UHGV virus genome: UHGV-0213691
DNA length: 44,307 bases
DNA from: a virus
Strand: one strand, 5' to 3'
In this document: positions 4,756-18,250 of the stretch, in pieces
Layout of the letters: every line of letters begins with the position of its first letter
Numbering within the stretch: the stretch's first letter is position 1
Made by a program: the position numbers and the translations under genes
Notes under the pieces: generated by a model
Told to the model about the DNA's origin: nothing
Database searches by the model: none
Seen by the model: only the letters and a program-made list of their open reading frames with translations

Positions 4756-5040
4756 CTAACTATAATAGTTCGCTATTAGGTCGTCAACCTCTTCTTTTGT
4801 TCCTACTACAAAAACATTTGCGTCACGTTTACGAAGCCGTTTGTGTTCCCGCAACTGATGGGCCTCCGGTTCCGTGTTTTCGTCTTTCTTCACCTCGACG
4901 AACCATATCACCCCTCCCGGAAGTACTACTAGCAGATCAGGCGCTCCGTTTCTACCCTCATACACCATCTTACGTACGAGGCCACCGAGGGCCTCGAATC
5001 GCTCTTTTGCGTATTTCTGGATGCGGCCCTCTTTAGTCAT
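4756..5040 (-). CDS. VRR-NUC domain nuclease
   Basis: 94 aa; PD-(D/E)xK-type signature PDLLVV...FVEVKK. Confidence 0.7.
   Translation of the reverse strand: MTKEGRIQKYAKERFEALGGLVRKMVYEGRNGAPDLLVVLPGGVIWFVEVKKDENTEPEAHQLREHKRLRKRDANVFVVGTKEEVDDLIANYYS
4759..4787 (-). promoter_or_regulatory. Sigma70-like promoter (TTGACG-17-TATAGT) with operator AATAG-N4-CTATT (4764-4777)
   Basis: Read on minus strand; hexamers with 17-bp spacer; lies inside the 3' end of the VRR-NUC ORF. Confidence 0.45.
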
Positions 5041-5189
5041 GGCCGCAGAATCCAGGTGAGGAAAGCCCCGCCGATGGTGGCAACGCCAACAAACTTAAAG
5101 AACAGGCCGTAGCAGAACATCGCGGCTATTCCCGCACCGAGTAACAGTGCGAGCATGGTTACTATCGTCCAAAATACAAACATTGTCAT
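5037..5189 (-). CDS. Small membrane protein (50 aa, 2 predicted TM helices)
   Basis: Not in ORF track (<60 aa); ATG with GAGGGG RBS; stop overlaps VRR-NUC start (ATGA); hydrophobic. Confidence 0.35.
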   Translation of the reverse strand: MTMFVFWTIVTMLALLLGAGIAAMFCYGLFFKFVGVATIGGAFLTWILRP

Positions 5190-5275
5190 AATACGCACCC
5201 CTCACGTTTAGTGTGTTCAATCCCGCAGCGCGGGCAGATTCGGCAGTCTTCTTCATATAACCGGTAAATTTTCAT
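5186..5275 (-). CDS. Tiny Cys-rich ORF (29 aa, CxxCxxC)
   Basis: ATGA-coupled between two other tiny ORFs; MKIYRLYEEDCRICPRCG... Confidence 0.2.
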   Translation of the reverse strand: MKIYRLYEEDCRICPRCGIEHTKREGCVL

Positions 5276-5403
5276 TCCAGCACCCACAGATACATCGCAA
5301 TGAGCATGCATAGTACCGCAACCACCATGCCGTATTGTCCTTCGTGACAGTAGACACCGGCGGCGAACCCCGCCAGTACCGCGATAATAAGTTTACTTAG
5401 CAT
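5272..5403 (-). CDS. Small membrane protein (43 aa)
   Basis: ATG overlaps 3' end of polymerase gene; hydrophobic MLSKLIIAVLAGFAAG...; ATGA-coupled downstream. Confidence 0.3.
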   Translation of the reverse strand: MLSKLIIAVLAGFAAGVYCHEGQYGMVVAVLCMLIAMYLWVLE

Positions 5404-7666
5404 AACGGTACACCTCTTCCCCGGCCCACGTTAGCGGGAATCCTTCAGCCCATTCAGGTAATGAGCATAATAGGTCGCCCATCTCTTTAACCGTGTACTC
5501 CGGTGTGTCTGGTGTTTCGGCGACGCATTCGTCATGTACGTGAAGTACAATTGGGTAGCCCGCTGCCTCGACCGTCAGGAGTCCGTTAACCAGTAAATCA
5601 CGACACAACGCCTGGATAATGTTTTCACACAATTTTCCGCCGTGTGTGTACAAAGTTGTCCACTGGCGGGTGGTCTGATTTTCGCCCTGGTATTTAATGC
5701 GAACGTTAGTTGTTACGCGCCCGTCCTCGTCGGTCTCTTTAGTAACGCTCAGACCTATGCCGGGGTATGACATGATGCGCCCTGACGGCAGTTCTACACA
5801 CAACCACCAACCCGGCACAAAGTTACCCTGTCTGTCTTTCTCTTTAGTACGCCAGATGCGGATAGCTCTGTCGCCGTTGAGGCGGACTCTGGCCCCCGCC
5901 CAAAACTCTCGTCCCGGATTTCTGATTGCAGCAATTACCGAATCCTTAAGGTCGTTCCAGAATTTCACTGTTTCCGGGTGGGCTTCCCGCCACATGCGCT
6001 TGATAGCATCGCAAGTGCGCCAGACTTCTTTAGGCAGCACATAAGAGGCCCGTTCATCTTTTTTACCGGGTTTTGGGGGTCGTTTAGCCTCCTGAATTCT
6101 GGCCCATTCGTAGCCACGGGCGGTAGCCGCCCAAATGTGGTCGGGGAACGTGCCCCGCATTGTCTCTGTCATTTTAAAGAGGTCCAGCCCGTAAGTTTTA
6201 GCCATAGTCATAAAAGCCCCTACGCCCCCCTCGTAGCCGAGGCCGAGTTCGCAACATTTCCCGACCTGACGTAGGTCCTTACGGGTGGCTTTTAGTTCTA
6301 CGGGGTCCATGCCAAACATCTTGCCCGCGGTGGCGCAATAAATATCAATCCCTGCGCGGAAGGTCTCAAGCGCGGATGTCTCCCCCGCGGTCCAGGCCAA
6401 CCCGCGCCCTTCTACGTTTGAGTAGTCGGCAACGAGCAACTTACTACCCTTTTCAGGGATGATGCAACTGCGAACAGTCGAGGCTGTCAGCTTGGATACG
6501 TCGAAACGACGGTGCGCCCGACCCTTTAGCAGCAGATTGATGCCGAACGATAGGGGGTTGAGACGACGGTTCCAGTCTTCGTCGGACTCCCACGGCTGGC
6601 GTACAAGTTTCTTCTCCTCGTTAGTCGGGTCATCATGATAGTACCCGCGCGACAGGTTCTGCGGCTGGAACCCTTTACCCGCAAATCGTAAAGTGCGCTT
6701 TGCCCCACCGTACTGGATGCAACCGCGGCGGCGGCCGTCTTTGGACCGTCCTAGCAGGAGCGGTTTGTATTTTGTCGACGCCGTGGAGGCCGCGCCGAGG
6801 CGCATCTCAATGATTGTGCGCGCATCGTCAGGTAAGTCGTCGTCCTCTAGCAAACCTTCGAGCGTTGCTTTCTGCGCATTATAGATATTGTAGGCCGGTG
6901 CCAGCTCCCGAAGGATTGGCAGGAAGTCTTTACCCGTTAGCTTCCCGCCAAATTTAGCCCTGGCCTCGTTTTTTAGCTCTTGCTTGTGGCGTTCAACTGC
7001 TGCTACCGCCGCCTCAGCAAGAGCCGCATCAACAAAGAAGCCTCGGTCGTTGATTAACTGGTCAAGTTCAAGTACACGGTCCTCGAAATCGGAGTTACCC
7101 CAACGTGGCAGCTTATGGAAGACTTCACGCATCGCTGTGATGTCGCTCACGGCGTACTTGATGAACAGCGCCCATTCGTCCGGGTGCGTTTCGGCGGTGT
7201 AGCGGCGGATTTTATAGTTCTTCGGGGTTGGTTTGGAGAAACGCTGAATCAGAGCCTTGCCACGTTTATCTTTCGCGTTGTCGGCGGATACGCCCAGCAC
7301 TTCGCATAATGCGTCAAGTGAACCCGGCAGCGCGTGGCGAAACGCCCAAATCATAGTGTCAATGGTGTTGCTGACCGGAATATCGAAGCCCCAGCAGTTC
7401 TTCATGATGAGCCTATCGAAAAGTCCACCGTTATGCCACACCATCTTAATGCGACTGTTTGGCTTCACCAGACGGCGTAACGCGCGGTGTAAATCTCCCG
7501 GCATGTCGCTGCCGTCAGTGCAGTCCCATACCTGAACAGGCTCGTCATCAAAAGCATAGGTGCAGATGAGCACTTCGGTAGTCGGGTGTTCGGCGTAAGC
7601 ATAGGAGCCGACTTTCTTCAAATCGGCTTCGGAGAAGGTTTCAAAGTCTAAGAACAGATAACTCAT
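5393..7666 (-). CDS. Family A DNA polymerase with 3'-5' exonuclease domain
   Basis: 757 aa; Exo I LDFETFS; motif A DYSNVEGR; motif B RKDLRQVGKCCELGLGYEGG; motif C VHDE. Confidence 0.9.
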   Translation of the reverse strand: MSYLFLDFETFSEADLKKVGSYAYAEHPTTEVLICTYAFDDEPVQVWDCTDGSDMPGDLHRALRRLVKPNSRIKMVWHNGGLFDRLIMKNCWGFDIPVSNTIDTMIWAFRHALPGSLDALCEVLGVSADNAKDKRGKALIQRFSKPTPKNYKIRRYTAETHPDEWALFIKYAVSDITAMREVFHKLPRWGNSDFEDRVLELDQLINDRGFFVDAALAEAAVAAVERHKQELKNEARAKFGGKLTGKDFLPILRELAPAYNIYNAQKATLEGLLEDDDLPDDARTIIEMRLGAASTASTKYKPLLLGRSKDGRRRGCIQYGGAKRTLRFAGKGFQPQNLSRGYYHDDPTNEEKKLVRQPWESDEDWNRRLNPLSFGINLLLKGRAHRRFDVSKLTASTVRSCIIPEKGSKLLVADYSNVEGRGLAWTAGETSALETFRAGIDIYCATAGKMFGMDPVELKATRKDLRQVGKCCELGLGYEGGVGAFMTMAKTYGLDLFKMTETMRGTFPDHIWAATARGYEWARIQEAKRPPKPGKKDERASYVLPKEVWRTCDAIKRMWREAHPETVKFWNDLKDSVIAAIRNPGREFWAGARVRLNGDRAIRIWRTKEKDRQGNFVPGWWLCVELPSGRIMSYPGIGLSVTKETDEDGRVTTNVRIKYQGENQTTRQWTTLYTHGGKLCENIIQALCRDLLVNGLLTVEAAGYPIVLHVHDECVAETPDTPEYTVKEMGDLLCSLPEWAEGFPLTWAGEEVYRYAK

Positions 7667-7677
7667 TATTTTGACCC

Positions 7678-7705
7678 TTAGTAAAAAGGCCCAATAAAGG
7701 GCCTT
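7678..7705 (-). terminator. Intrinsic terminator/attenuator between SSB-like gene and polymerase gene
   Basis: Minus-strand AAGGCCC-loop-GGGCCTT hairpin followed by TTTTT, 12 nt upstream of pol ATG. Confidence 0.45.
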
Positions 7706-7724
7706 AATTAAACAGATTCAGATA

Positions 7725-8357
7725 TTAACCACGGCGACGACGTTCGCGGCGCGGTGCTTCATCTTCTTCGTCGTCTTCCAGGTCGTCGGTGCTCGCTACT
7801 ACACTGGAGCCGCCGAAGCGTTTACCTTCGCCCATATACTTGATGCCGAGGATGGTAGCGCACAGGTTTTTCCAATCTTTGTGCCACCATAATTCTACAG
7901 ATACGTTTGCGATACATCCGCTATATACCTGCTCGCCTTCTATTTCTTTCCCGTCGATGTTGAAATCAGGCTCGGTTTGTTTTTCACCTTTAGCCGATGT
8001 CATAATCACCGGTTGGCGGTTGTTTGTAGCGCGGAAATACAGACCTTCTTCAAAATCCTCAATCGGATTATCTCGCATTGCCAGGTCACGGACGCAGCAT
8101 TTGTCTGCGTGGTGGTCTACACCGTAGTTGGCCTTCATCCATTTCTCGGCAGCAGCGGCCCCGATTGCATCTGTTACAACTTCCAACGCGGTGTCGTAAA
8201 GCGCATCAATTTGAGGATGGTCAGGCTGCATAAGAACAGTAACCTGATACTTACCCTTAATCAGTTTACCGGTTTTCTTGTCCTCAGAGTCGGCGGCACG
8301 TTCAAATACGTTAACCCAGGCAGTGTTTACTTTACGCAGATTCAGTTTAATACCCAT
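7725..8357 (-). CDS. Putative ssDNA-binding protein (DUF2815-like) with acidic C-terminal tail
   Basis: 210 aa; N-terminal VNTAWVNVFERA...KYQVTVLM pattern; DDLEDDEEDE tail; classic position beside DUF2800 and Pol A genes. Confidence 0.45.
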   Translation of the reverse strand: MGIKLNLRKVNTAWVNVFERAADSEDKKTGKLIKGKYQVTVLMQPDHPQIDALYDTALEVVTDAIGAAAAEKWMKANYGVDHHADKCCVRDLAMRDNPIEDFEEGLYFRATNNRQPVIMTSAKGEKQTEPDFNIDGKEIEGEQVYSGCIANVSVELWWHKDWKNLCATILGIKYMGEGKRFGGSSVVASTDDLEDDEEDEAPRRERRRRG

Positions 8358-8411
8358 CTTGATTTCTCGCTTTTAAGTTTACTCCGGGAAGCTGCCCGGC
8401 CAGTGATTAGA

Positions 8412-8440
8412 ACTATAATAGTTAACTATTCAGGTGTCAA
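8412..8440 (-). promoter_or_regulatory. Sigma70-like promoter (TTGACA-17-TATAGT) with perfect palindrome AATAGTTAACTATT (8417-8430)
   Basis: Consensus -35, 17-bp spacer, operator overlapping spacer and -10; upstream of SSB-like gene. Confidence 0.55.
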
Positions 8441-8673
8441 CCCTTCCAGCCAGTTATTTTCTCAACTATCAGTACGTATTCGAAAGGCCCCTCCAAATTC
8501 TGCACCCATTTAATTTCCTTCGTTGAGTCAAGTTGCTCGGGGTCTACCGTTTCGTACTTAATCGCAACGTAGACCGTGAGCGGAAGAAGGATAACTAGAA
8601 GCGGCACTAACATTGCCCAGTAAACTACGAAGGCCACAAGCCCGCCAAGCACCCTGAACATTTTACGAATCAT
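8437..8673 (-). CDS. Small membrane protein (78 aa)
   Basis: ATG at 8673 with GAGGAGGA RBS; hydrophobic core LVAFVVYWAMLVPLLVILLPLTVYVAI; ATGA overlap with DUF2800 stop. Confidence 0.4.
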   Translation of the reverse strand: MIRKMFRVLGGLVAFVVYWAMLVPLLVILLPLTVYVAIKYETVDPEQLDSTKEIKWVQNLEGPFEYVLIVEKITGWKG

Positions 8674-9944
8674 TCTAAATCCTCCTCTGTTACCTGATTC
8701 CACTCAGGACGTTTATCGTCTGCCGTTGCAACACATGGCGCGCCAGGCTTACGGGTCACGAGTTTAGCCAATTCTTCCCACAGTTCTGGGTCAATTTTAC
8801 CTATGGTTTTTTCTGCTTCTGTTGGGGTAACTGGCACTAGTTTATCTAATAAGTAGCCGTTTACATGGTTTTCTCTGAATTTATTTACTGCGTCTTCATC
8901 TTTCCACGCACGATTACCGGGACGACCTTCAACCAGCTTGTACCCAGGCACTTTCTTACCTGAATGCAACGCAGCAGCCATAGCTCTCTCCACCTTGTCG
9001 ATGTGCTGGCGCAACAACGGCAACTTCTCATACTCAGCTGCGAGTTGCTCTGGTGTAAGCTCCAGTGCAAAGTCGTCTTCCAGTTCTTCCGCCAGCACCG
9101 AGTTAACTGTTTTTGTACGCGCTGCGCACTGTTCGGAGAACCGACACCACTGACAACCATCTGCCGATGGCTTGAAGTCCGACGCTTTCAGGTTCTTCTT
9201 GCCACGTGAATAGGCGTCAAGCGCTAACAGAGCGCGTTTCTGTGCGAACTTAGCGAACAGTTCCAGACCTTCAACCGAGATGTCACACTCGGACGCACCG
9301 CCAGCATACGGCTGGAAGATAACAAGACGAACAACTGTGATGTTATAACGTCTCCTGAGTCGGCGATAAACACCGAGAGCGTAAAGCATTAGCTGCTTGT
9401 TTTCTTTCGCTTCGACACGATGCCGTCCCGTTTTAAGGTCGCCAATAATGAGCATGTGCTCGTCAGTGTTTGCCAGTTCCTGAACGGCAACAAGGTCGGC
9501 GGTGCCGAACGTCTCAATGCCTTCGTAGCCCGGATGCAATACCTCAGTAAGATTGACGCGCATTTCCAGCTTGGCGTAAGTCGCTACATCGATAATCGCT
9601 TTGCAGTAATCGGTGTACTTGCGCACCTGCTCAATCATATCCGTCGTAATCAGTACCGCACCTTTCATCGGGCTTATTAGCGCCTTAATCTGGCCTTTAC
9701 CTTCATCCAGCACGTAAGCACCGACTTCACGCTCTAATGGCAACGCAGTACCGCGTATATAGGCGTTGAGATGTACCTCAGCTATGGTGTGACACGCGGT
9801 CCCTATAACGGCGGATTTACCCGAAGTGTTAGGAATATCTTTTTCACAGGCCAGTGACGCCGCGCATGACAGCCACTTTTTCGCCCCAGACGGCGACAGT
9901 AAGGCGTGCACATCGTTATTGCCACCGCGTTCCTTTAAAATCAT
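8670..9944 (-). CDS. DUF2800-like PD-(D/E)xK nuclease with C-terminal Cys cluster (Cas4-like)
   Basis: About 424 aa from ATG 9944 (track start 9959 is GTG); N-terminal LSPSGAKKWLSCAASL; C-terminal CQWCRFSEQC cluster. Confidence 0.65.
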   Translation of the reverse strand: MILKERGGNNDVHALLSPSGAKKWLSCAASLACEKDIPNTSGKSAVIGTACHTIAEVHLNAYIRGTALPLEREVGAYVLDEGKGQIKALISPMKGAVLITTDMIEQVRKYTDYCKAIIDVATYAKLEMRVNLTEVLHPGYEGIETFGTADLVAVQELANTDEHMLIIGDLKTGRHRVEAKENKQLMLYALGVYRRLRRRYNITVVRLVIFQPYAGGASECDISVEGLELFAKFAQKRALLALDAYSRGKKNLKASDFKPSADGCQWCRFSEQCAARTKTVNSVLAEELEDDFALELTPEQLAAEYEKLPLLRQHIDKVERAMAAALHSGKKVPGYKLVEGRPGNRAWKDEDAVNKFRENHVNGYLLDKLVPVTPTEAEKTIGKIDPELWEELAKLVTRKPGAPCVATADDKRPEWNQVTEEDLE

Positions 9945-10213
9945 ACCCTGCTCTCCCACTGGTCAATTAAATGTCGTGTCTTATGTTCGCAGTGCATAGC
10001 CCACCCATACATCGACTCGAAGACATAAAAGTCAGGTTTGGCAAATGTCGTGCGCTTAATCTGCGACACGTGACGGCCTATATCTTTAGGCCGCGGTACT
10101 TTGCCTAAGTACGCCATCTCTTTCATCTGGTGCGCACCGGACGGCGCACGCAACAGCCATAGCGCCTCTGTGTTATCCCGCCTGTCTACGGCGCGATAGA
10201 GTTGGTAAATCAT
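9941..10213 (-). CDS. Hypothetical protein (90 aa)
   Basis: ATG with GAGGA RBS; its first 28 codons are duplicated at 10693-10769. Confidence 0.5.
   Translation of the reverse strand: MIYQLYRAVDRRDNTEALWLLRAPSGAHQMKEMAYLGKVPRPKDIGRHVSQIKRTTFAKPDFYVFESMYGWAMHCEHKTRHLIDQWESRV
10137..10213. repeat. Direct repeat copy 1 (77 bp; 63-bp identical core 10151-10213)
   Basis: Near-identical to 10693-10769; covers the 5' coding end of gene 9941-10213 and stops at its start codon. Confidence 0.85.
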
Positions 10214-10232
10214 GTGCTTATCCTCAAAGTCA

Positions 10233-10252
10233 CCCGGCGCCGAAGCGCCGGG
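10233..10252. promoter_or_regulatory. GC-rich perfect hairpin (CCCGGCGC-CGAA-GCGCCGGG) in intergenic spacer
   Basis: 8-bp stem, 4-nt loop, no U-tract; between Tad2-like gene and next gene. Confidence 0.35.
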
Positions 10253-10260
10253 CCGGTTGA

Positions 10261-10524
10261 TTATTCTTCGTTATCGTCCAAAATAATCCAGTCGTAAGAC
10301 AGGACATCAGTTTGCGATGCCAACCACGGTACTAATTTATCATCGGCAGTTTTCATGCAAATAAATGATAGTGTTTCAATACCATCAACGCCTTCGACAT
10401 CAGATTCAAAGCTCCAATGGTTGCCGACGACGAGGAAAAGGAACATATTTTTACCATTCCACCCACCGCGCGCAACACGGTGCCCGATAGCTAACGCTTT
10501 AGTTGCTTCCCCGAAATTAATCAT
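10261..10524 (-). CDS. DUF2829-like protein (Tad2-type candidate anti-Thoeris cyclic-nucleotide sponge)
   Basis: 87 aa; FGEA..AL..G.RVARGGWNGK.MFL and MKTADDKLVPWLASQTDVLSYDW match the remembered DUF2829 signature; ATG with GAGGAG RBS. Confidence 0.45.
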   Translation of the reverse strand: MINFGEATKALAIGHRVARGGWNGKNMFLFLVVGNHWSFESDVEGVDGIETLSFICMKTADDKLVPWLASQTDVLSYDWIILDDNEE

Positions 10525-10528
10525 GTCA

Positions 10529-10769
10529 TTACTCCTCTATATCGTAATACTTAGCGACAATGGCTTTCAGTTCCTTGTGGAACTCCTGCACCTGGAGGTC
10601 CTTCAGCTTTTTGACTGAACGGGCATCATATCCGTCCAGCAGGTCGTCCAGCTCGTCGGCGCAGTCGTCAGAATCGCCGCTGCCGATGTGCTCCGGACGG
10701 TGCGCGCAACAGCCATAGCGCCTCTGTGTTATCCCGCCTGTCTACGGCGCGATAGAGTTGGTAAATCAT
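10529..10769 (-). pseudogene. Mosaic gene remnant: duplicated 28-codon N-terminus fused out of frame to a paralogue of the acidic protein C-terminus
   Basis: ATG at 10769 reads MIYQLYRAVDRRDNTEALWLLRAPSGAH then stops at 10668; the +1 frame continues for 70 codons ending at 10529-10531 and resembles the C-terminus of ORF 10813-11340. Confidence 0.3.
10693..10769. repeat. Direct repeat copy 2 (77 bp; 63-bp identical core 10707-10769)
   Basis: See copy 1; the two copies bracket a 556-bp segment containing the Tad2-like gene. Confidence 0.85.
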
Positions 10770-10812
10770 AATTCCGACCCTCAGTTAAAGCGGCCAGAAG
10801 GCCGCGAGATAG

Positions 10813-11340
10813 TTATTCTTCTTCGAAGTACTTGTTCTTGATTGCCGTCAGGCGTTCCAGGTATTCAGCCAGGTCTTCGTCTTTAATCGCGGCAATCTTC
10901 ATTTTCTTACCGGTGAACTCTTCCAGCAGTTCATCAGAATCATCGCACGCTGCATCGCTCGGACCTTCGTTAATCGCATCATCAATAGCCTGAATCTGGT
11001 CACGCAGAGACTGGTAATCGACTTCTTCTTTCTCTTCTTCCGGCTCTGGCGTCGGCTCCTCTACTTTAGCTTTACGTGGCTTACGTTTAGGCTTCTCTTC
11101 TTCTGGTTTAGTGTCAACGACGTCTTCACCTTCTACCGGGATTTCTTTTTTAATGCTGGATTTTTGTAATTCTAATGTATGTTCGAGTTCAAGTTTCTCT
11201 TTAGCCACCTCGTGCTTGGCAATGGCGATATTTAGTTTTGTGTCCAGTTCTTTCGATGATGCTTGTTTCACGCTATTCGCAGCAATCAGTTCATGCGCAA
11301 CTACGAAACGTTCCAGTAATACTAAGAATTTCTCTAACAT
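10813..11340 (-). CDS. Highly acidic, E/K-rich early protein (175 aa)
   Basis: First gene of leftward operon; GAGGAGAG RBS; long acidic low-complexity stretches. Confidence 0.55.
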   Translation of the reverse strand: MLEKFLVLLERFVVAHELIAANSVKQASSKELDTKLNIAIAKHEVAKEKLELEHTLELQKSSIKKEIPVEGEDVVDTKPEEEKPKRKPRKAKVEEPTPEPEEEKEEVDYQSLRDQIQAIDDAINEGPSDAACDDSDELLEEFTGKKMKIAAIKDEDLAEYLERLTAIKNKYFEEE

Positions 11341-11371
11341 TTGTTTCTCTCCTCTCGTTTGGTATGGGCTA

Positions 11372-11400
11372 ACTATAATAGCGAACTATTCACTTGTCAA
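11372..11400 (-). promoter_or_regulatory. Leftward early promoter (TTGACA-17-TATAGT) with operator AATAGCGAACTATT (11377-11390)
   Basis: Consensus -35, 17-bp spacer; in divergent control region. Confidence 0.6.
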
Positions 11401-11464
11401 TGGGCTTTTCTAAAATAATTAATATGGTACTATTCACATATCAACTGACTAAGGAGTAATCGAC
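11401..11464 (+). promoter_or_regulatory. Rightward promoter/operator region for the HTH gene (degenerate operator AATATGGTACTATT 11421-11434; RBS AAGGAG)
   Basis: TACTAT -10-like hexamer at 11428-11433 but no clear -35; strong RBS 11451-11456. Confidence 0.35.
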
Positions 11465-11680
11465 ATGCAACCATCCGAACTAGGCATCCGTGTAGAACAA
11501 CGCCGTAAAGAACTAGGCATCTCCCAGCGCCGTCTTGCGGTCCTGGCCGGCGTTTCCCAGGGCGCGATTAACCAGCTTGCGCTCGGGGTAACTCAGGACG
11601 TCCGCCCGGCGACGCTGTTTAAACTGGCGGAAGTGCTGCAAGTAGACGCCAAGTGGTTGGCGTTCGGTGAAGGGGCTTAA
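11465..11680 (+). CDS. XRE-family helix-turn-helix transcriptional regulator (Cro/CI-like)
   Basis: 71 aa; HTH signature ELGISQRRLAVLAGVSQGAINQLALG; divergent from leftward early operon. Confidence 0.75.
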   Translation: MQPSELGIRVEQRRKELGISQRRLAVLAGVSQGAINQLALGVTQDVRPATLFKLAEVLQVDAKWLAFGEGA

Positions 11681-11698
11681 CGCCCCTTTCTTTTTACC
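11672..11698 (+). terminator. Intrinsic terminator after HTH gene
   Basis: AGGGGC-TTAAC-GCCCCT hairpin followed by TTCTTTTT. Confidence 0.55.
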
Positions 11699-13965
11699 TA
11701 TTCCAAATCCTCCGCTGTCACCACCAGCATTTCATTCGGTTCGTATATTGTCTTCGGAATCTTGTTATCCGTTATCCTGGTGTTAAGCCGGTAGCGGCCA
11801 GGTATTATCTGATTGTTTTCGTCAGTCCCCGGAACAAGATACCCGGCCTCAACCATTTTCTTAATCTTCCCGCGTTCTATGGCTTCTTTGGAGTTAAACG
11901 CCTTTGCGTTGGGGTCTGACTGAGCGAGCTTATTCGCTGCGGCCACCGTGATACCTTCATTGCCGTTGTAGGTTCCTTCTGCCAGTTCAAACGCTGCCAG
12001 TATCGTGGCTTCCGAACTGTTGACGGCGTTCTCTACGGTTTTACGTACGTTTTCTTTACCTTCCTTTGTCAGCCCTTCTTCCCGCTCTTTCTCCTCGTCA
12101 GTTTTGAACGGCTCGAAGCCCCACGGCATCAGTACAAGCGCCTTGTGCGGTTCAGGCAGGTCGAGGTTTACGATTGTGCCGTATTCCTCTGTGCTACCCA
12201 GGAACTCAACCGCGCGATACTCTTTCGGCGGCGGGGCTTCACGGAACTGTACTGACTCCAACACCATACCAACCGTCTTCTGTTGAGGCCCGTGCTTAAA
12301 TTTAGAGTGGTATACGTTTATCTGGCGGTCGGTAGCGCGTTCGATTGTCAGCTCCACGTCGACGCCCGCATACAGCGCCCCACTGCCACGGGCCTTCTTT
12401 CCACCCTTCGGCGTATGGTGGACAACGCCTACCGCAGCTTTAGTCGCATCACGTACTTCTTTCAGGATGGCAATGACTTTACCCATGCCGATTGCCGTCG
12501 ATGAACTGTTCTCGTCGAACTTATCAATCGTCAGGGCCAGCGTCTGGTTAAGGGTGTCGAATGCGACCATGCCAATTGGCTCGTCACCCGCAGTTTCACG
12601 CATTAACTTAATCAGGTTTTTCAGTTTTCCGACTTCGCCCATGTCGATAACATGTACATAATCTTTACCTTCCTCGCCATATTTAGCCGCGAGTGCATCT
12701 ATACGTGTGCGGGTAGCTGCGCCGCCCTCACCGTCGATATAAAAATGGTGGCAACGCTGCGTATCAGCTCCCGCAAACCGGTATCCTGCGGCGCTAAGGT
12801 ACATCATCCCCAGTGTATAAAACGATTTGTACGTGCCAGATTCCCCGACGATATCCCAGATACAATCTGATGGCACATACCCTTCGACGACGAAATCAGC
12901 CTTTACCGGTTCCGGTAGCTCGTCCTCCTCTGGGTCCTCGTCGTCTTCTAGGTCGTCGAGGCTGCATGAAACTGATTCACGCGCGCCCCAGCCAATTGCC
13001 TCAGCGACTTCACTGAACGGCAGCCCAGTCGCATCGCACGCATACTTCCACACCTCTTTCGGTGACATGCCTTCGGTTGCCGTAATGTCGGTGTCGTGAA
13101 TCATGGTTACGTTAGGCGCTTCGTACCCTTCACGTGGGAAGCATAGCAGGAAGTCGTCCGGACGCGGCGTCGGGTCGCTGTAGTTCTCTGCGTGTTCTGG
13201 CGTAGCTGGCATCTTCAGACCGCGGGGCGTCATGACGCCACCATACTCGAACGCCAGTGCTTCGAACGCGTCCGTAAACGCGGTGCGCAGTTCTTCCGGT
13301 ATCTGGTAGTCAGATGCGCTGCTCACCTCGTAATCCGGTACGCCTTCCAGTAACTCGTCAGGGTCAATCAGGTCGTTTCGGCGCGACCAGATAACCTGAG
13401 AGCCGACCGGTGGCAGGTACATCGGCTGGGACAGAGTAAACCCGCTGCGGTCCGCGCCCATGCCTTTGAAGAAGTGCTCCAGCAACCCGTGACGTACGCG
13501 GATGATGTCACCGCCTTCGACCGGGCGGGCCAGCGGCATGACGACGCGAAAGCGTGGAGACTCATCGGTATGGGATGCCGTGGTGTAAACGCACATGGCT
13601 TTACGGCCTCGCTTAACCAGGCGCACTGCTTCCTGGTACTCTTCCGGCGTTGCGCTGTCGAAGTCAAGATACGCCAGTGACGATTTAGTTACAGACGCGT
13701 CACAGCGATAGAAGAAGCCTTTACGCGCATGCTTAAAGTCACCTGTTTCCGGGTCTTTTACGGTGCTGTGTGTCGAGTCGCACGCGGCGGTGATATATCC
13801 CGGCGCGGTCTTCGGGTTAACCCCATCACGGACAGCATCAAGCGGCTGGAGTAGCTCTTTCAGGTCGTCCAGTGTTGCCGTGTGAGTGGTTCTGACGTTT
13901 ATATCCTTTTTCTCTGCCCGCGCGTTGCGACGGGACCACGAGTAGGATAAAATTACATCGGACAT
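11698..13965 (-). CDS. Bifunctional primase(-polymerase)/helicase
   Basis: 755 aa; N-terminal AEP-like motifs YLDFD, ASHT, RFRVV; C-terminal RecA-like ATPase Walker A GESGTYKS and Walker B MVAFDTL. Confidence 0.7.
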   Translation of the reverse strand: MSDVILSYSWSRRNARAEKKDINVRTTHTATLDDLKELLQPLDAVRDGVNPKTAPGYITAACDSTHSTVKDPETGDFKHARKGFFYRCDASVTKSSLAYLDFDSATPEEYQEAVRLVKRGRKAMCVYTTASHTDESPRFRVVMPLARPVEGGDIIRVRHGLLEHFFKGMGADRSGFTLSQPMYLPPVGSQVIWSRRNDLIDPDELLEGVPDYEVSSASDYQIPEELRTAFTDAFEALAFEYGGVMTPRGLKMPATPEHAENYSDPTPRPDDFLLCFPREGYEAPNVTMIHDTDITATEGMSPKEVWKYACDATGLPFSEVAEAIGWGARESVSCSLDDLEDDEDPEEDELPEPVKADFVVEGYVPSDCIWDIVGESGTYKSFYTLGMMYLSAAGYRFAGADTQRCHHFYIDGEGGAATRTRIDALAAKYGEEGKDYVHVIDMGEVGKLKNLIKLMRETAGDEPIGMVAFDTLNQTLALTIDKFDENSSSTAIGMGKVIAILKEVRDATKAAVGVVHHTPKGGKKARGSGALYAGVDVELTIERATDRQINVYHSKFKHGPQQKTVGMVLESVQFREAPPPKEYRAVEFLGSTEEYGTIVNLDLPEPHKALVLMPWGFEPFKTDEEKEREEGLTKEGKENVRKTVENAVNSSEATILAAFELAEGTYNGNEGITVAAANKLAQSDPNAKAFNSKEAIERGKIKKMVEAGYLVPGTDENNQIIPGRYRLNTRITDNKIPKTIYEPNEMLVVTAEDLE

Positions 13966-14023
13966 GTTGTATTTCCTTCAGCAAGTAATTTGGCCTCGGC
14001 GTTCACCGCGTCGGGGCTTTCTT

Positions 14024-14257
14024 TTATTCCAGGTCTTCTAAAGTGGCTGTCATTCCGCGAACTTCGGCAACGGCACTATATTTCCCACCAACATTTTTCA
14101 CGGCACCAGATTTAACCAGTACCCTCAATGACCCTTCAATAATGGCAGAACTATAGTACTTAAAATAACTGCGGCGCAAGTCGATAACGCTGCACGACCC
14201 TTTTTTACGTGTTAACGAAACGACCGCCGTAAATACGCGTGACTGGAACTCGGTCAT
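14024..14257 (-). CDS. Hypothetical protein (77 aa)
   Basis: ATG start overlaps upstream gene stop (ATGA). Confidence 0.45.
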   Translation of the reverse strand: MTEFQSRVFTAVVSLTRKKGSCSVIDLRRSYFKYYSSAIIEGSLRVLVKSGAVKNVGGKYSAVAEVRGMTATLEDLE

Positions 14258-14424
14258 TTCACGTTCTCCTTAATCCACGCTTCCACCTTCTCCGGGTCAA
14301 ACGTACCTGGCTGACGGCGACCCATAATGCGAATACAGCAATCCGGGAACTTCCCGCTCTTTAACCAGTTATTCAGCGTGCGACGAGTAACTCCTATACG
14401 CTCCGCTACCTCATTCTGTGTCAT
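14254..14424 (-). CDS. AlpA/excisionase-like HTH DNA-binding protein
   Basis: 56 aa from ATG 14424 with GAGGG RBS (track start 14457 is TTG); MTQNEVAERIGVTRRTLNNWLKSGKFP. Confidence 0.55.
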   Translation of the reverse strand: MTQNEVAERIGVTRRTLNNWLKSGKFPDCCIRIMGRRQPGTFDPEKVEAWIKENVK

Positions 14425-14456
14425 TCTCAAACCCTCATTATCAGTTAACGAAACCA

Positions 14457-14485
14457 AGTATACATTGCGAATAATGGGAAATCAA
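14457..14485 (-). promoter_or_regulatory. Candidate leftward promoter (TTGATT-17-TATACT)
   Basis: Hexamers with 17-bp spacer read on minus strand, just upstream of ATG 14424. Confidence 0.3.
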
Positions 14486-14575
14486 ACATAATCGCACCTA
14501 TTGACATTAAGAAAATCTTCGTTTAAGGTGCTTCTATATCTTAGTTACTTTGATTCCTGTTCACCTTGTAAGAAT

Positions 14576-14607
14576 GTTTAACCCGTGCGACAAGCAAAGG
14601 GTTAAAC
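14576..14607. other. Stem-loop (9-bp stem GTTTAACCC/GGGTTAAAC, 14-nt loop) in noncoding region
   Basis: Perfect inverted repeat; no flanking ORF. Confidence 0.4.
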
Positions 14608-14762
14608 ACAGGCTTACTGAACATGAGAATTATCGTAACTTTCCTTCCTAAGTATCTCCGGTTGCCATGGGCAAGCTCTATTCTCATCGGCAGCATATCT
14701 CTTAAGTATATGATTTTCTTAATGTGCCGTAGATTCGCAACCGTAAAAATGTAACGATTATT

Positions 14763-14790
14763 GGGCAGGCTTAAGGCCTGCCCTTTAGTT
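14763..14790. terminator. Hairpin GGGCAGGC-TTAA-GGCCTGCCC followed by TTTAGTT (terminator-like)
   Basis: Stable hairpin in 450-bp noncoding region; short T tract on plus strand. Confidence 0.4.
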
Positions 14791-14855
14791 ACCAAGTAAT
14801 AAGAATAAAGGCGCAACCTTCCCCAAAGAATCACAACGGCAACGTAACTATTCTC

Positions 14856-14884
14856 TTGCACACCCCAACATAATAGGATACTAT
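14856..14884 (+). promoter_or_regulatory. Rightward promoter (TTGCAC-17-TACTAT) with operator AATAGGATACTATT (14872-14885)
   Basis: 33-bp block TTGCACACCCCAACATAATAGGATACTATTCAC, near-identical to promoters at 27937-27965 and 37164-37192. Confidence 0.6.
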
Positions 14885-14918
14885 TCACTTATCGAAACGA
14901 GACAGAGGAGTGGGTGTT

Positions 14919-15110
14919 ATGTTTAAGAAGGGTCAGTTAGTGAAAACTATATATGGTAGCTTCGGTATTATTGAAAAGAAATCGGCAGTGTACCGAAGTT
15001 CTTATGTTGTTAGCTTACTCAGGGAGCATGGGTTAAGTTCAGCGGCGTATTACCGAGAGTATGAAATGAAACTCATCGGCAACAATTTTAAATTCAAAGG
15101 GGTGAAGTGA
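14919..15110 (+). CDS. Hypothetical protein
   Basis: ATG 14919 with AGAGGAG RBS (track start 14910 is GTG). Confidence 0.45.
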   Translation: MFKKGQLVKTIYGSFGIIEKKSAVYRSSYVVSLLREHGLSSAAYYREYEMKLIGNNFKFKGVK

Positions 15111-15295
15111 TGGGTGAATTAATTTACGACGTATATGTAGGTGGTAGATTCAGTTATTCAACAAGAAGCAGAGGCGAGGCGTTTGACCATTGTGTTGCGT
15201 TAGCAAAATTGGGTTTCAACGCAGAATTTAAATCAAGAACGGCATCGAATCATGATGCTCGTGCCGACGACTCTGAGGGAGGTTGCCGTGAATAA
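15110..15295 (+). CDS. Hypothetical protein
   Basis: ATG overlapping previous stop (TGATG). Confidence 0.4.
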   Translation: MGELIYDVYVGGRFSYSTRSRGEAFDHCVALAKLGFNAEFKSRTASNHDARADDSEGGCRE

Positions 15296-15355
15296 TTACC
15301 CGTTCATTTTAATTGTCAGCGCCGTTTATGTGGCGCACGCGTTGCGGGGGTTGGT

Positions 15356-15550
15356 ATGAGTCCATATAACGAATTCCGATTACGCCGTCTGATTGGCAGT
15401 CTGCATGCTGCCGAGTTTGGTGTTGAATGCTGGGAAAAGGCGAAATACACCCCTTGGAAGTCGTGTAATTTGGCTCACGCTAAGGCGGTAGCGCAGTACC
15501 GAGAGTACAAGTTAATCAGTTTCCTTAAACACCACGTGGTGGAGCTATGA
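15356..15550 (+). CDS. Hypothetical protein (64 aa)
   Basis: ATG start; same strand as neighbours. Confidence 0.4.
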   Translation: MSPYNEFRLRRLIGSLHAAEFGVECWEKAKYTPWKSCNLAHAKAVAQYREYKLISFLKHHVVEL

Positions 15551-15690
15551 GAGAAGCATTCGAACGGTGGGCCGTCGTCGAGGGGTTGCCGGTTAACAAG
15601 GGTTCAAAGAAAGAGTACCTGAACGTTAAGACGCGTCTCGCGTGGCGGGCGTGGAAAGCTGGTGTTCGAACTGCGATGAATACGAGGTGA
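15547..15690 (+). CDS. Hypothetical protein (47 aa)
   Basis: Not in track; ATGA-coupled to previous gene; MREAFERWAVVEGLPVNKG... Confidence 0.3.
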   Translation: MREAFERWAVVEGLPVNKGSKKEYLNVKTRLAWRAWKAGVRTAMNTR

Positions 15691-15693
15691 GAT

Positions 15694-15891
15694 ATGAGCG
15701 AGTGGGTTAAGTGTAGTGAGCGTATGCCTGGTGATTTTGAAGATGTTCTTGTTTCAGATGGAGATAACGTCGAGGTTATGTGGTGGGACTGCGACGGTTT
15801 CTGGGATTGTTGGGCGCCGCGTAACTCAAACATCGATATTGACGATGTAACCCACTGGATGCCGTTACCTGAGCCGCCATCGCTGGTATAA
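15694..15891 (+). CDS. DUF551-like phage protein
   Basis: 65 aa; C-terminal VTHWMPLPEPP and W/C-rich core. Confidence 0.5.
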   Translation: MSEWVKCSERMPGDFEDVLVSDGDNVEVMWWDCDGFWDCWAPRNSNIDIDDVTHWMPLPEPPSLV

Positions 15892-15937
15892 CAGGTGGTG
15901 TAACAGGTCAATAGGTTACTATTTTACTGAGTGACTT

Positions 15938-15970
15938 ACGCTGCTGTGTAGCAGCGTATCATTTTTCTCA
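15938..15970 (+). terminator. Intrinsic terminator
   Basis: ACGCTGCT-GTGT-AGCAGCGT hairpin followed by ATCATTTTT; operator-like AATAGGTTACTATT sits just upstream at 15910-15923. Confidence 0.6.
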
Positions 15971-16028
15971 TTTCTGTTCTATTTCACCAAACGCAACAAT
16001 CGAAGCAACTATTGCGAGAGATGCAACA

Positions 16029-16199
16029 ATGAAACTGAATGACATCGTAACCTGGACCGGTAGAAACGGAGAAAAGCGATTCGGGCTTATCGTTGCGTCA
16101 GACGGCAACAAGTACCGTGTTATGCGATGGCGTCAGTGGGCGAGACGCCCGAGGTACTACTGGATTCGTAGCGAACGCTTATCCCTAAAACACCAATAA
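16029..16199 (+). CDS. Hypothetical protein (56 aa)
   Basis: Not in track; ATG ORF between terminator and next promoter. Confidence 0.3.
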   Translation: MKLNDIVTWTGRNGEKRFGLIVASDGNKYRVMRWRQWARRPRYYWIRSERLSLKHQ

Positions 16200-16206
16200 A
16201 ATTTAC

Positions 16207-16235
16207 TTGCACACTAAGATAGAATAGGCTACTAT
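16207..16235 (+). promoter_or_regulatory. Rightward promoter (TTGCAC-17-TACTAT) with operator AATAGGCTACTATT (16223-16236)
   Basis: Same architecture as 14856-14884. Confidence 0.55.
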
Positions 16236-16266
16236 TCATATACACAGATGAGGGGAGAGACAGAAG

Positions 16267-16404
16267 ATGGGCTGGTACGGTAGCTGGACTTTAGGCGAAC
16301 TGGTAGACGCTTACGAAATACTGGGTAGCACTTCGGTGCGCAACGGCGACACTAAATCGCTGCTAGTCGGGGTAGATGAGAAAAGGGGCGAAGCTGATGA
16401 GTAA
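16267..16404 (+). CDS. Hypothetical protein (45 aa)
   Basis: Not in track; ATG with GAGGGGAG RBS. Confidence 0.3.
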   Translation: MGWYGSWTLGELVDAYEILGSTSVRNGDTKSLLVGVDEKRGEADE

Positions 16405-16810
16405 CAAAAACGAAGTATTCGAGTACTTGATTGACCAACTACGGCAGCAGGTAAATAGCAACCAGTGCGAAGACCTGGAGCGCGAGGTGCAGTCACTTAA
16501 GAATCAGTTACGTGACGCGTCGGCGCAGATTAAGGAGTTGCATCTGGCGCTGGTCCAAGCTACTGGTGATGTGGAGGCGTACAAACTTATACGCAAAGGC
16601 GGGTACGTCAATGGGGGTCAGCGTTACGTGGTGGGTGGACATGTGCCCGCGGCAACGGTAAATTGTCGGTGTACCAAGACTCCTGTACCGCCGGAGCAAT
16701 CTGGTTGCCGTAAGGAAGATACGGATTGGTCTCAATGCCAGCACGATTATATCTATCACGAAACTATATGTGCTAGACGGTGCCTGCATTGCGGGGACGT
16801 TCAGAAATGA
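16397..16810 (+). CDS. Coiled-coil protein with C-terminal Cys/His-rich zinc-finger-like region
   Basis: About 137 aa from ATG 16397 (alternative ATG 16376); CRCTKTP...CARRCLHCG. Confidence 0.5.
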   Translation: MSNKNEVFEYLIDQLRQQVNSNQCEDLEREVQSLKNQLRDASAQIKELHLALVQATGDVEAYKLIRKGGYVNGGQRYVVGGHVPAATVNCRCTKTPVPPEQSGCRKEDTDWSQCQHDYIYHETICARRCLHCGDVQK

Positions 16811-17010
16811 CCAGCATCTTATTTATCTGGGTACTGACCGCAGGCCATATGCAACTCGCAGCATCAGAAACGTTTTATTCGATGGAGGCGTGCCAGTCAG
16901 CGGCACGCGCCGCAGAGAACGCGCACTTCCTGTTCCAGGGCGACAAGCCCAACGATTCGGAGGTACGCGCTATCTGCGCACCCAAGCGACTTGGTAAACA
17001 GGAGAAATGA
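16807..17010 (+). CDS. Small protein with N-terminal signal-peptide-like segment
   Basis: ATGA-coupled; MTSILFIWVLTAGHMQLAASE hydrophobic N-terminus. Confidence 0.4.
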   Translation: MTSILFIWVLTAGHMQLAASETFYSMEACQSAARAAENAHFLFQGDKPNDSEVRAICAPKRLGKQEK

Positions 17011-17261
17011 TTATGGTTAAATTATACGCAGAGCGCGATTTAGAAATGCTAGACATGACTAACAATTATTATTCAAGACATGTTATGGCTATGACAGAGG
17101 AGGGTCTGAACAGTAAATCATCTATCGCCGCGGAGTTGGCGTATCGCGACTGGATTATTGATGAACAGCAAAAAGAGTTACAGAAATACAAGGACCAGTT
17201 CCCGGATTACGTCGAGTGCGCGAACTGTGGGTCAGTTACACATGTGGAAGGGGTGGAGTGA
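17007..17261 (+). CDS. Hypothetical protein (84 aa)
   Basis: ATG with CAGGAG RBS; ATGA-coupled. Confidence 0.45.
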   Translation: MIMVKLYAERDLEMLDMTNNYYSRHVMAMTEEGLNSKSSIAAELAYRDWIIDEQQKELQKYKDQFPDYVECANCGSVTHVEGVE

Positions 17262-17263
17262 AG

Positions 17264-17491
17264 ATGACGAGTAGAGAGCAGTTTGAAAAGTGGTTTAGTG
17301 ATAATTTTGGCAGGCCATATTATTCCGATGAGGAGAGAGATGAATTAGAGGTTTATACGTTTCTGGCGTGGCGAGCATCACGCGAAGAAATTGAAATTAA
17401 AGCGTGTCCTTGCCCAAACGACCACGGCCCGTATGTCGATGACCACTATCGCGAGCAAATTAACAACGCAGGCCTAAAATTGGAAAAATGA
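17264..17491 (+). CDS. Hypothetical protein (75 aa)
   Basis: ATG 17264 with GGAG-rich RBS (track start 17216 is upstream in frame). Confidence 0.45.
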   Translation: MTSREQFEKWFSDNFGRPYYSDEERDELEVYTFLAWRASREEIEIKACPCPNDHGPYVDDHYREQINNAGLKLEK

Positions 17492-17572
17492 TTGTCCAAC
17501 TGGGCAACATCATGAAAGCAGATATCATTCAGCTTGAGGATTACGGTATACAACTCGCGGAGATTGTGGAAC

Positions 17573-17866
17573 ATGAGCCTTGCAACTGACATCCTGAAAC
17601 GAAGCGGCCTTGCGCCGCTTTCACCGAGAGCGAACACCCGGATATACAAGCGCCGCCGTAACGCGCTGTACCCTGAGATTCAGGCCAGACGCAAAGCGGT
17701 CCGCGCCTGTGGATTCCAGAACGGTAAGGCCGTGAATCTTGGTGAGTTTAAAACACAGGAACGCGCGGCTATCGCTAATCGGTTATTTAATTACTGGAAA
17801 TCGCTCGGATACGATGATATTCCGACGAAGCCGCAGAGACGACAATACATCTGGAGACATAAATAA
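17573..17866 (+). CDS. Basic hypothetical protein (about 97 aa)
   Basis: ATG 17573 (track TTG 17534 is in frame); R/K-rich. Confidence 0.4.
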   Translation: MSLATDILKRSGLAPLSPRANTRIYKRRRNALYPEIQARRKAVRACGFQNGKAVNLGEFKTQERAAIANRLFNYWKSLGYDDIPTKPQRRQYIWRHK

Positions 17867-17896
17867 ACCGTTATTAAGATAATTCCTACCCGTGGT

Positions 17897-17936
17897 ATCC
17901 TCCAGTTACTGCATACTTAATACGCACCTGGAGGAT
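17897..17936 (+). promoter_or_regulatory. Stem-loop sequestering the holin RBS
   Basis: ATCCTCCAG (17897-17905) pairs with CTGGAGGAT (17928-17936); the 3' arm contains GGAGGA, 8 nt before the holin TTG start. Confidence 0.4.
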
Positions 17937-17941
17937 TCATC

Positions 17942-18250
17942 TTGGATAAATTTACTGAAACAGTGACGGGGTGGCTTCTGGCTGCCGCACTCGCCGGTGG
18001 GGTAATCGGACTAAGGCAACATAAGTCCGTTATTTCCGGCCCTATCGACGGATTCTGCTTTATTGCAACCGGCTTCACCTGCGCCGTATTTGGTGCACCT
18101 CTTGCAGCGCAATGGTTTGGAATTACCGGGGAGCGTGAGATAGCTGGCCTCGGATTCATCATCGCAATTCTCTGGATGCCCATCTATTCCCGTCTCTCCG
18201 GTATCGTCGCCGGAGAATACATCGCACGTCGAGGAGGCACAGATGAATGA
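17942..18250 (+). CDS. Putative holin
   Basis: 102 aa with three hydrophobic segments; TTG start with GGAGGA RBS; immediately upstream of endolysin. Confidence 0.55.
   Translation: MDKFTETVTGWLLAAALAGGVIGLRQHKSVISGPIDGFCFIATGFTCAVFGAPLAAQWFGITGEREIAGLGFIIAILWMPIYSRLSGIVAGEYIARRGGTDE

Follow-up and report, generated by a model that had tools for sequence, protein, structure and literature searches.

A recurrent AATAG-N4-CTATT dyad as the candidate operator of a 434-Cro-like protein at promoters throughout a Kagunavirus-type phage genome

UHGV-0213691, the window analyzed here, is the complete 44,307-bp genome of a virulent coliphage, a Kagunavirus-type siphovirus (Guernseyvirinae), in which the interval 11341-11464 separates a leftward operon from a small rightward gene encoding a 71-amino-acid (aa) XRE-family helix-turn-helix (HTH) protein. 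The interval holds two copies of an inverted repeat, AATAG-N4-CTATT, that recurs at predicted promoters throughout the genome, and both copies lie less than 90 bp upstream of the XRE gene. The locus contains the following features, the promoter classes being those described further below:

11372-11400, minus strand: predicted class B promoter TTGACA(11400-11395)-N17-TATAGT(11377-11372), with the perfect dyad AATAGCGAACTATT at 11377-11390 in its spacer
11421-11434, plus strand: degenerate dyad AATATGGTACTATT at the XRE gene's own promoter, identical in four other Kaguna genomes
11465-11680, plus strand: gene of the 71-aa XRE/HTH_3 protein, the candidate operator-binding repressor, with a terminator hairpin at 11669-11689

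The promoter at 11372-11400 heads the leftward operon starting at 11340, and its dyad is kept in Kaguna genomes and, with one mismatch, in Jersey genomes. The degenerate copy, which a previous sequence-only reading of this DNA had already noted, differs from the consensus by a single mismatch and fits two promoter contexts: it either has class A geometry, with the -10 hexamer TACTAT at 11428-11433 before the XRE gene, or lies at +1 of a better promoter, TTCACT(11389)-N16-TAAAAT(11416), the -35 element of which abuts the perfect dyad at 11377. The Jersey counterpart is TTGCAC-N17-TACTAT with ATTACTGTACTATT. This arrangement, one good and one degenerate copy flanking the XRE gene, is found in Kaguna, Jersey, and Cornell-type phages.

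The XRE protein matches the Pfam HTH_3 family (E 1.2e-12) and a PHROG "transcriptional repressor" family, and its best match in the PDB by phmmer is 434 Cro, which is also 71 aa long (residues 6-68, E 4.9e-7). The AlphaFold2 model (predicted local distance difference test score, pLDDT, 84) contains five helices, and the folds closest to it are 2cro/3cro and the 434 repressor domain, with template modeling (TM) scores of 0.72-0.79; the top Foldseek match is 2cro (0.72/0.78). 434 Cro binds as a dimer to 14-bp operators of the form ACAA-N6-TTGT, in which Gln28 reads the A at position 1. The glutamine is retained in the XRE protein (Q32), and the proposed operator likewise begins with A. Every relative examined carries the gene, with approximately 117 Kaguna records at at least 90% identity and several hundred Jersey records at approximately 51%. 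In Escherichia phage GertrudWoker_Bas73, which is approximately 92% identical to the window over the compared part, the gene is intact (34027-34239, 94% identity) yet unannotated, its place in the annotation being taken by a short open reading frame (ORF) of the opposite strand (Bas73_0051, 34042-34137); K1G and K1ind1 likewise carry no annotated feature at this locus.

Nine exact copies of the dyad, starting at 4764, 8417, 11377, 14872, 15910, 16223, 24946, 27936, and 37163, are found in the whole window against 0.03 expected, and none of 100 dinucleotide shuffles of the window contained nine, so that the objection of chance occurrence fails. One-mismatch copies start at 11421, 19096, 28027, and 43386. 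When all 5-bp dyads with gaps of 0-10 are counted without bias, AATAG-N4-CTATT ranks first in the window and in Bas73, SETP3, and SP-101, and the only other recurrent dyad is a terminator hairpin common to these phages. The whole-window motif scan recovered every dyad coordinate listed in the sequence-only reading, including the inverted half-sites at 28018-28033 (CTATT-CG-AATAG); a direct copy with one mismatch, at 28027-28040, shares part of this stretch. The extended form of the motif is [G/T]AATAG-N4-CTATT[A/C]; the longer extension proposed earlier, TGAATAGT...CTATTAT, applies to about 6-7 of the nine sites and not to the remainder. Among the relatives used for motif counts (six Kaguna, five Jersey, and two Cornell-type genomes and an unrelated Klebsiella phage), exact dyads occur at orthologous promoters in all 11 Kaguna and Jersey genomes, with 6-9 copies in each of the six Kaguna and 4-5 in each of the five Jersey genomes, and exact copies number zero in the two Cornell-type genomes and the Klebsiella phage.

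The predicted promoters and dyads away from the XRE locus are as follows:

4759-4787, minus strand: class B promoter TTGACG-N17-TATAGT with a dyad at 4764-4777; heads a 63-aa gene, a methyltransferase, and an SNF2 helicase
8412-8440, minus strand: class B promoter TTGACA-N17-TATAGT with a perfectly palindromic dyad at 8417-8430; heads the SSB/DNA polymerase operon
14856-14885, plus strand: class A promoter TTGCAC(14856)-N17-TACTAT(14879-14884) with a dyad at 14872-14885; heads a rightward operon of small genes
15910-15923, no strand assigned: exact dyad without promoter context, at the 3' end of a coding sequence just before a terminator (15937-15958); no -35 element
16207-16236, plus strand: class A promoter TTGCAC-N17-TACTAT with a dyad at 16223-16236; heads small genes, an HslV-like peptidase, holins, and an endolysin
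19096-19129, plus strand: weak one-mismatch dyad ACTAGTTGACTATT centered on the -35 element of TTGACT(19101)-N17-TATATT(19124-19129)
24946-24975, minus strand: class A promoter TTGCAG(24975-24970)-N17-TACTAT(24952-24947) with a dyad at 24946-24959; would drive a 104-aa gene (24590-24904)
27936-27965, minus strand: class A promoter TTGCAC-N17-TACTAT with a dyad at 27936-27949; would drive the genes at 27895-26537
28018-28060, plus strand: CTATT-CG-AATAG-TTGA-CTTTT, that is, inverted half-sites plus a one-mismatch dyad at 28027-28040
37153-37192, both strands: dyad at 37163-37176 common to two promoters, of which the minus-strand one is class A (TTGCAC 37192-37187, TACTAT 37169-37164)

The candidate operator dyads thus overlap the core elements of predicted sigma70-type hexamer pairs with 17-bp spacers, as the sequence-only reading had described; the description holds for eight exact sites and fails at 15910, which lacks a -35 element. 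Three registers can be distinguished in the window. Class B promoters (4764, 8417, and 11377; minus strand) have the form TTGAC[AG]-N17-TATAGT with the dyad at -25 to -12, nearly all of it within the spacer and its last base forming the first base of the -10 hexamer; this trio comprises the best sigma70 matches genome-wide (11, 11, and 10 of 12) and heads three replication operons. Class A promoters (14872 and 16223 on the plus strand; 24946, 27936, and 37163 on the minus strand) have the form TTGCA[CG]-N17-TACTAT with the dyad at -19 to -6, match sigma70 only modestly (7/12), and carry the extended motif (TGAATAG...CTATTAT) reversed relative to class B, which bears out the earlier statement that the dyad occurs in either orientation relative to transcription. 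In class C (19096 and 28027, one mismatch each), the dyad spans -40 to -27 and is centered on the -35 hexamer TTGACT of the two plus-strand promoters heading the terminase/portal block and the capsid/tail block. The center of the dyad accordingly falls at -12.5 in class A, -18.5 in class B, and -33.5 in class C, and at -15.5 in the bidirectional arrangement of Jerseyviruses, where one dyad lies exactly between TTGACG-N17-TATTAA on the plus strand and TTGCAT-N17-TATTAT on the minus strand. Because the sequence is kept while its position relative to the hexamers shifts, the dyad is more than a component of the sequence that sigma70 recognizes.

Several sites appear to serve more than one promoter, and all five divergent gene-block junctions in the genome carry a site. 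The second promoter at 37163 lies on the plus strand in the class B register (GTTACA at 37153, N17, TATATT at 37176-37181) and faces a block of tail genes; similarly, a weak opposite-strand promoter of the helicase-primase block, TCGATA-N17-TATGTT, may share the dyad at 14872 in the class B register. The promoter at 19096 heads small genes, terminase, and portal, and its site is conserved, with the imperfect half on the opposite side in Jersey phages (AATAGTTGACTAGT). The dyad at 28027-28040 is centered on the -35 element of TTGACT(28032)-N17-TAAGCT(28055-28060), a promoter that heads the spanin, scaffold, capsid, and tail block, and 24 bp of the 28018 region are identical in Kaguna and Jersey phages. 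The site at 15910 is not conserved in most relatives, the orthologous positions reading AATAGTTTGGGATT or AACTATTTAGGATT except in LM02P1 and BUCT823, and it is probably fortuitous or lineage-specific and not functional. None of the nine relatives compared carries an orthologue of the 104-aa gene or of its class A promoter and dyad, and the 24590-24975 cassette looks like a moron-type insertion that brought, or has acquired, a standard operator.

The gene order of the window agrees with that of the annotated Bas73, SETP3, and ST20 genomes, with blocks alternating between leftward and rightward transcription:

2191-11340, minus strand: replication genes
11698-14888, minus strand: helicase-primase block
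14910-24567, plus strand: small genes, lysis, terminase, and portal
head and tail genes: broken up by three short leftward cassettes

Orthologous regions were located through their flanks alone, with the motif masked against circularity, and the half-sites proved to be better conserved than their surroundings. Identity to the window is 93.9% for half-sites, 80.8% for flanks, and 84% for the 4-bp center among Kaguna phages, and 83.5%, 63.9%, and 54.8%, respectively, among Jersey phages; the excess of half-sites over flanks is significant in both genera (p about 1e-10), and the center does not differ significantly from the flanks. At the SSB promoter, the center reads TTAA, TTAG, TACT, or TAGA depending on the phage, while the half-sites, the -35 element, and the -10 element stay constant. 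A variable center between constant half-sites indicates selection on the half-sites and not on the center, and this combination is the signature expected of a dimer that would contact the outer bases only.

A link between the dyad and the XRE protein is suggested by variation among genera. The recognition helices are SQGAINQLALG in Kaguna, SQSLITHLATG in Jersey, and TQSAISHLCCG in Cornell-type phages, and they were compared with operators at 51 IMG/VR loci, counting exact dyads within ±10 kb. Loci with SQGAINQ (n = 34) and with SQSLITH (n = 13, including the frameshifted L062) are always accompanied by AATAG-N4-CTATT, with a mean of 3-4 exact copies, and the four loci with TQSAISH never are. 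Instead, Cornell-type genomes carry dyads of the TATTA-N6-TAATA type, three of them exact and seven with at most one mismatch against 1.05 expected (the count in L004); all are in promoter contexts at the same positions, including -35-centered copies, and their form, TATTAS-N4-STAATA, is shifted relative to the AATAG dyad. The window itself contains six matches to TATTA-N6-TAATA with at most one mismatch (1.03 expected; one of 100 shuffles reached six), none of them exact, of which five lie off predicted promoters and the sixth (8405) abuts the dyad at 8417; the Cornell-type evidence therefore consists of the three exact sites and their promoter context and not of the count alone. Symmetrized half-sites read [G/T]AATAG in Kaguna, TAATAG in Jersey, and TA[T>A]TA[G/C/T] in Cornell-type phages, with position -1 varying by genus. 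The unrelated 44-kb Klebsiella phage klb_E (L003) encodes an XRE homologue with the 434-type helix TKQQTIQQ, and two 434-type operators ACAA-N6-TTGT (ACAAGGTTATTTGT and ACAAACTTGTTTGT) are present at the promoter of the homologue's gene (34284-34324); an unbiased dyad count found no genome-wide dyad in klb_E, and the locus resembles an immunity element of the 434 kind carried by a Klebsiella phage. Taken together, these comparisons are suggestive of a helix and an operator that change together. Intermediate XRE homologues (77-86% identity) added no helix class, as all have an identical helix, and L062, first taken as a case of a divergent XRE protein with the AlpA-like protein present, is actually a Jersey-type phage with a frameshifted XRE gene.

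AATAG-N4-CTATT is probably the operator of the phage's own 434-Cro-like protein, encoded at 11465-11680. The proposal in the sequence-only reading of a single dimeric phage protein, probably the XRE regulator, acting also on its own gene gains computational support from the dyad symmetry, the 434-Cro homology, the adjoining operators, and the joint change of helix and operator. An XRE dimer would sit on each 14-bp dyad with its two recognition helices in successive major grooves, and because the dyads lie between or over the -35 and -10 hexamers, the bound protein would sterically occlude the host sigma70 RNA polymerase. Perfect, presumably strong operators would control the near-consensus promoters of the replication operons and the promoters at divergent junctions, some of them serving two overlapping divergent promoters, and one-mismatch, presumably weaker operators would control the XRE gene's own promoter and the -35 elements of the two promoters of the packaging and head/tail genes. 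As the XRE protein accumulates, early and replication transcription would be turned off first, and its own transcription and that of the late genes would be damped at higher levels. The outcome would be a Cro-style turn-down with negative autoregulation on a genome-wide scale, producing a relative shift to late expression without a dedicated late activator. In this scheme, the binding, dimerization, sign of regulation, and affinity hierarchy of the XRE protein are all inferred. A further generalization, which we regard as tentative and more doubtful than the identity of the binder, would place the whole transcription program of virulent Guernseyvirinae under one Cro-like protein, with an operator on every promoter, operators shared at divergent junctions, graded operator quality replacing an early/middle/late cascade, and the genus dialects [G/T]AATAG, TAATAG, and TATTAS acting as cross-immunity groups; if this were true, Kaguna and Jersey phages would cross-repress, and Cornell-type phages would be orthogonal.

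Several observations weigh against this interpretation. The association between helix and operator comprises three or four lineages and is phylogenetically confounded, and any protein diverging along the genera would produce it equally. Four positions separate the Kaguna helix (SQGAINQ) from the Jersey helix (SQSLITH), yet the AATAG core is common to both, which a simple recognition code does not predict. The class A promoters, as modest sigma70 matches, leave room for an activating or dual role, and repression everywhere leaves the escape of the late genes unexplained, for which the weak operators are an inferred answer. Coarse RNA sequencing (RNA-seq) of a related Kagunavirus, K1B4, showed little temporal structure, with most genes in one broad "middle" class (PMC12645636). 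The XRE orthologue is probably among these "middle" genes, although the gene assignment is uncertain (PMC12645636), and the data are compatible with the turn-down model and too coarse to discriminate.

The confounding with phylogeny and the unlike helices over a like core also bear on the alternative that the dyad is bound by another protein, with the XRE regulator acting locally or otherwise; the candidates are a 78-aa NinH-like protein (20661-20897), the 175-aa product of the first leftward gene, and a host enterobacterial factor. The NinH-like protein is found in all three genera, but its divergence is 62-66% in each genus pair and does not follow the operator change, and it was rejected as the binder on this ground. 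A host factor cannot account for the altered dyad in Cornell-type Salmonella phages that share hosts with Jerseyviruses, and to our knowledge none of the known host transcription-factor boxes (ArgR, Fis, CRP, FNR, and others) fits. As no other recognizable dimeric sequence-specific HTH protein was found among the candidates scanned (Pfam, PHROG), and only the XRE gene has a perfect and a degenerate operator next to it in every case, we consider a different binder unlikely, though deserving of some weight. It is slightly less likely that the XRE protein binds the dyad but activates transcription or acts dually, for example by stimulating the weak class A or the late class C promoters while repressing class B. 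The 7/12 sigma70 match of class A would suit such a role, as would the late -35-centered sites, which in both genera keep one half perfect and the other imperfect, yet a dimer would cover the -10 element when centered at -12.5 and the -35 element when centered at -33.5, a position for occlusion and not for class I or class II activation, and no activator-type spacing (about -41.5 or -61.5) was seen at the dyads. That no dedicated protein is involved, the dyad being an intrinsic symmetric bidirectional promoter with copies spread by duplication or recombination, seems improbable to a somewhat greater degree. The half-sites are AT-rich and overlap -10 hexamers (TACTAT, TATTAT) on both strands; several sites, among them SETP3 15245 and window 37163, fall where divergent blocks meet and each strand offers a plausible promoter; and the 20-mers appear in published genome descriptions as plain promoters. 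Against this, the class B half-sites lie within the spacer, upstream of the real -10 hexamer TATAGT; the promoter-distal half of class A (AATAG, -19 to -15) touches no sigma70 element; the class C dyad straddles the -35 element; and hexamers and spacers vary between sites while the half-sites are invariant and the center varies freely among orthologues. An intrinsic bidirectional promoter was rejected because it does not account for the spacer-located half-sites and the multiple registers.

Two further explanations can be given very little credence. The AlpA-like HTH_17 protein (14254-14457, minus strand) is 80-89% conserved between Kaguna and Jersey phages, which have the motif in common, and the Cornell-type phages have neither the motif nor the protein; nevertheless, a complete genome, ST20, and the loci L025 and L033 contain no AlpA-like homologue (best tblastn E 0.027) and retain six exact and three one-mismatch operators at the usual promoters, with XRE proteins 98.6-100% identical. 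The promoter of the AlpA-like gene itself has no dyad, and the Cornell-type phages keep a dyad regulon without the protein. Small MerR-like or excisionase HTH proteins typically bind direct repeats. The AlpA-like protein as binder is effectively refuted by ST20, which lacks its gene and has a 100% identical XRE protein and all operators, and we hold this possibility to be very remote. An analogy to the Pseudomonas aeruginosa AlpA antiterminator was also discarded, because the latter is a large monomer that recognizes an asymmetric 6-bp element. Less credible still is the reading of the 20-mers as promoters of a phage-encoded RNA polymerase, which is the PHIRE interpretation for fBC-Eco01, stated with the consensus tgAATAGTa-ccTATTat-T (PMC9825357). 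The element, a dyad, points either way relative to downstream genes, with no fixed direction, and lies within canonical sigma70 -35/-10 pairs. A search of the large ORFs found neither an RNA polymerase nor a sigma domain, and the annotations of Bas73, SETP3, and ST20 list none either; the label is refuted by this gene content.

Other observations concern the surroundings of these sites. The block encoding p77, the AlpA-like protein, and p115 beside the helicase-primase gene is swapped in ST20 (L064 6954-7539), L033 (12559-13144), and L025 (3624-4209) for a module encoding a 47-aa CxxC...CxxC (zinc-ribbon-like) protein and a 149-aa protein, a natural module swap. The 115-aa ORF (14541-14888, minus strand), annotated in relatives, has its GTG start inside the dyad at 14872 and holds a strong terminator-like hairpin of the plus strand at 14763-14783, and its true start and coding status are uncertain. 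In three class A promoters (14856-14871, 27950-27965, and 37177-37192), an identical spacer, ACCCCAA(C/T)AT, lies between the -35 element and the dyad; the Jersey orthologue of 14872 has it too, but 16223 and 24946 do not. Its opposite strand reads CTATTATGTTGGGGTGTGCAA, and the spacer may serve as the initial transcribed region of a divergent promoter or as a second protein site. A GC-rich hairpin, AAGGCCCC-N4/5-GGGGCCTT, recurs where gene blocks converge (1946-1965, 7686-7705, 24572-24591, 26528-26548, and 35363-35382); several of these copies are scored as terminators, on one strand or, as at 26528, on both, and Bas73, SETP3, SP-101, and Cornell-type phages use this hairpin as well. The tailspike encoded at 1-1941 contains a SASA (sialic-acid-specific acetylesterase/carbohydrate esterase) domain (E 6e-14), which suggests a deacetylating receptor-destroying enzyme and not a glycosidase.

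Parts of this system are already known, as the literature calls the repeat a "promoter" and annotations often make the protein a "transcriptional repressor". The searchable literature yielded no report of the link between repeat and repressor, the dyad or operator nature of the element, the occurrence of the element on promoters genome-wide in a virulent phage, the operators common to overlapping divergent promoters, or the genus variants. A Cro-type repressor-operator system deployed unusually, on a global scale, in a virulent phage is plausible, and it would give a mechanistic meaning to the conserved 20-mer listed as a "phage promoter" in papers on Kaguna-type genomes, with a 71-aa protein that is usually "hypothetical" or unannotated (as in Bas73) as the predicted master regulator. 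The phage group is widely isolated for therapy against Escherichia coli and Salmonella, and one of its members, CM001, is a small synthetic-biology chassis (BASEL paper). If confirmed, the system would provide a small orthogonal pair of repressor and operator that comes with natural variants in specificity and would explain how the very strong replication promoters are restrained; phages of the same operator dialect in a cocktail may also repress one another in co-infection.

Comparison with known systems begins with the PHIRE "phage-specific promoters" of fBC-Eco01 (PMC9825357) and VB_EcoS-Golestan (PMC7203180). The 20-mers in question (e.g., TGAATAGTACCCTATTATAT and TAATAGCGAACTATTCACAT) are the same elements at the same genome positions as the dyads; those reports read them as promoters, in fBC-Eco01 as promoters of a phage RNA polymerase, and did not recognize the dyad symmetry, the operator role, or the link to the 71-aa protein. 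The best match in sequence and fold is 434 Cro/cI. Both systems have the five-helix HTH_3 fold, in proteins of the same length as far as 434 Cro is concerned, and a 14-bp pseudo-palindromic operator with conserved outer bases (A at position 1, a glutamine at the start of the helix) and a variable center; in both, operators overlap -35 and -10 elements and the regulator gene lies at a divergent promoter region with unequal operators. The half-site is AATAG here and ACAA in 434, however, and the present system has no cI partner, integrase, or lysogeny and has single operators dispersed over at least 11 promoters in place of six sites at OR/OL, with some operators common to two overlapping divergent promoters. 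No second repressor or integrase is annotated in the close relatives Bas73, SETP3, and ST20, and no lysogeny genes were reported for fBC-Eco01 (PMC9825357). The system is thus not a lambdoid immunity region (cI/Cro switch), as it lacks an antagonistic repressor, a tripartite OR/OL, and an integrase, and its operators are single and dispersed.

The controller (C) proteins of restriction-modification systems, such as C.AhdI and C.BclI, are likewise small XRE-fold dimers with dyads (C-boxes) over their own promoter and with strong and weak sites, and controller proteins are among the fold-search matches of the XRE model; theirs is a local single-locus circuit, whereas here a genome-wide regulon is proposed. 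The proposed global silencing by one repressor at many sites across the genome resembles that of mycobacteriophage L5, a temperate phage in which gp71 acts on elongation at approximately 30 "stoperator" sites, asymmetric 13-mers in one orientation inside transcription units. In contrast to stoperators, the sites described here are symmetric and lie on promoters at intergenic junctions, in a virulent phage.

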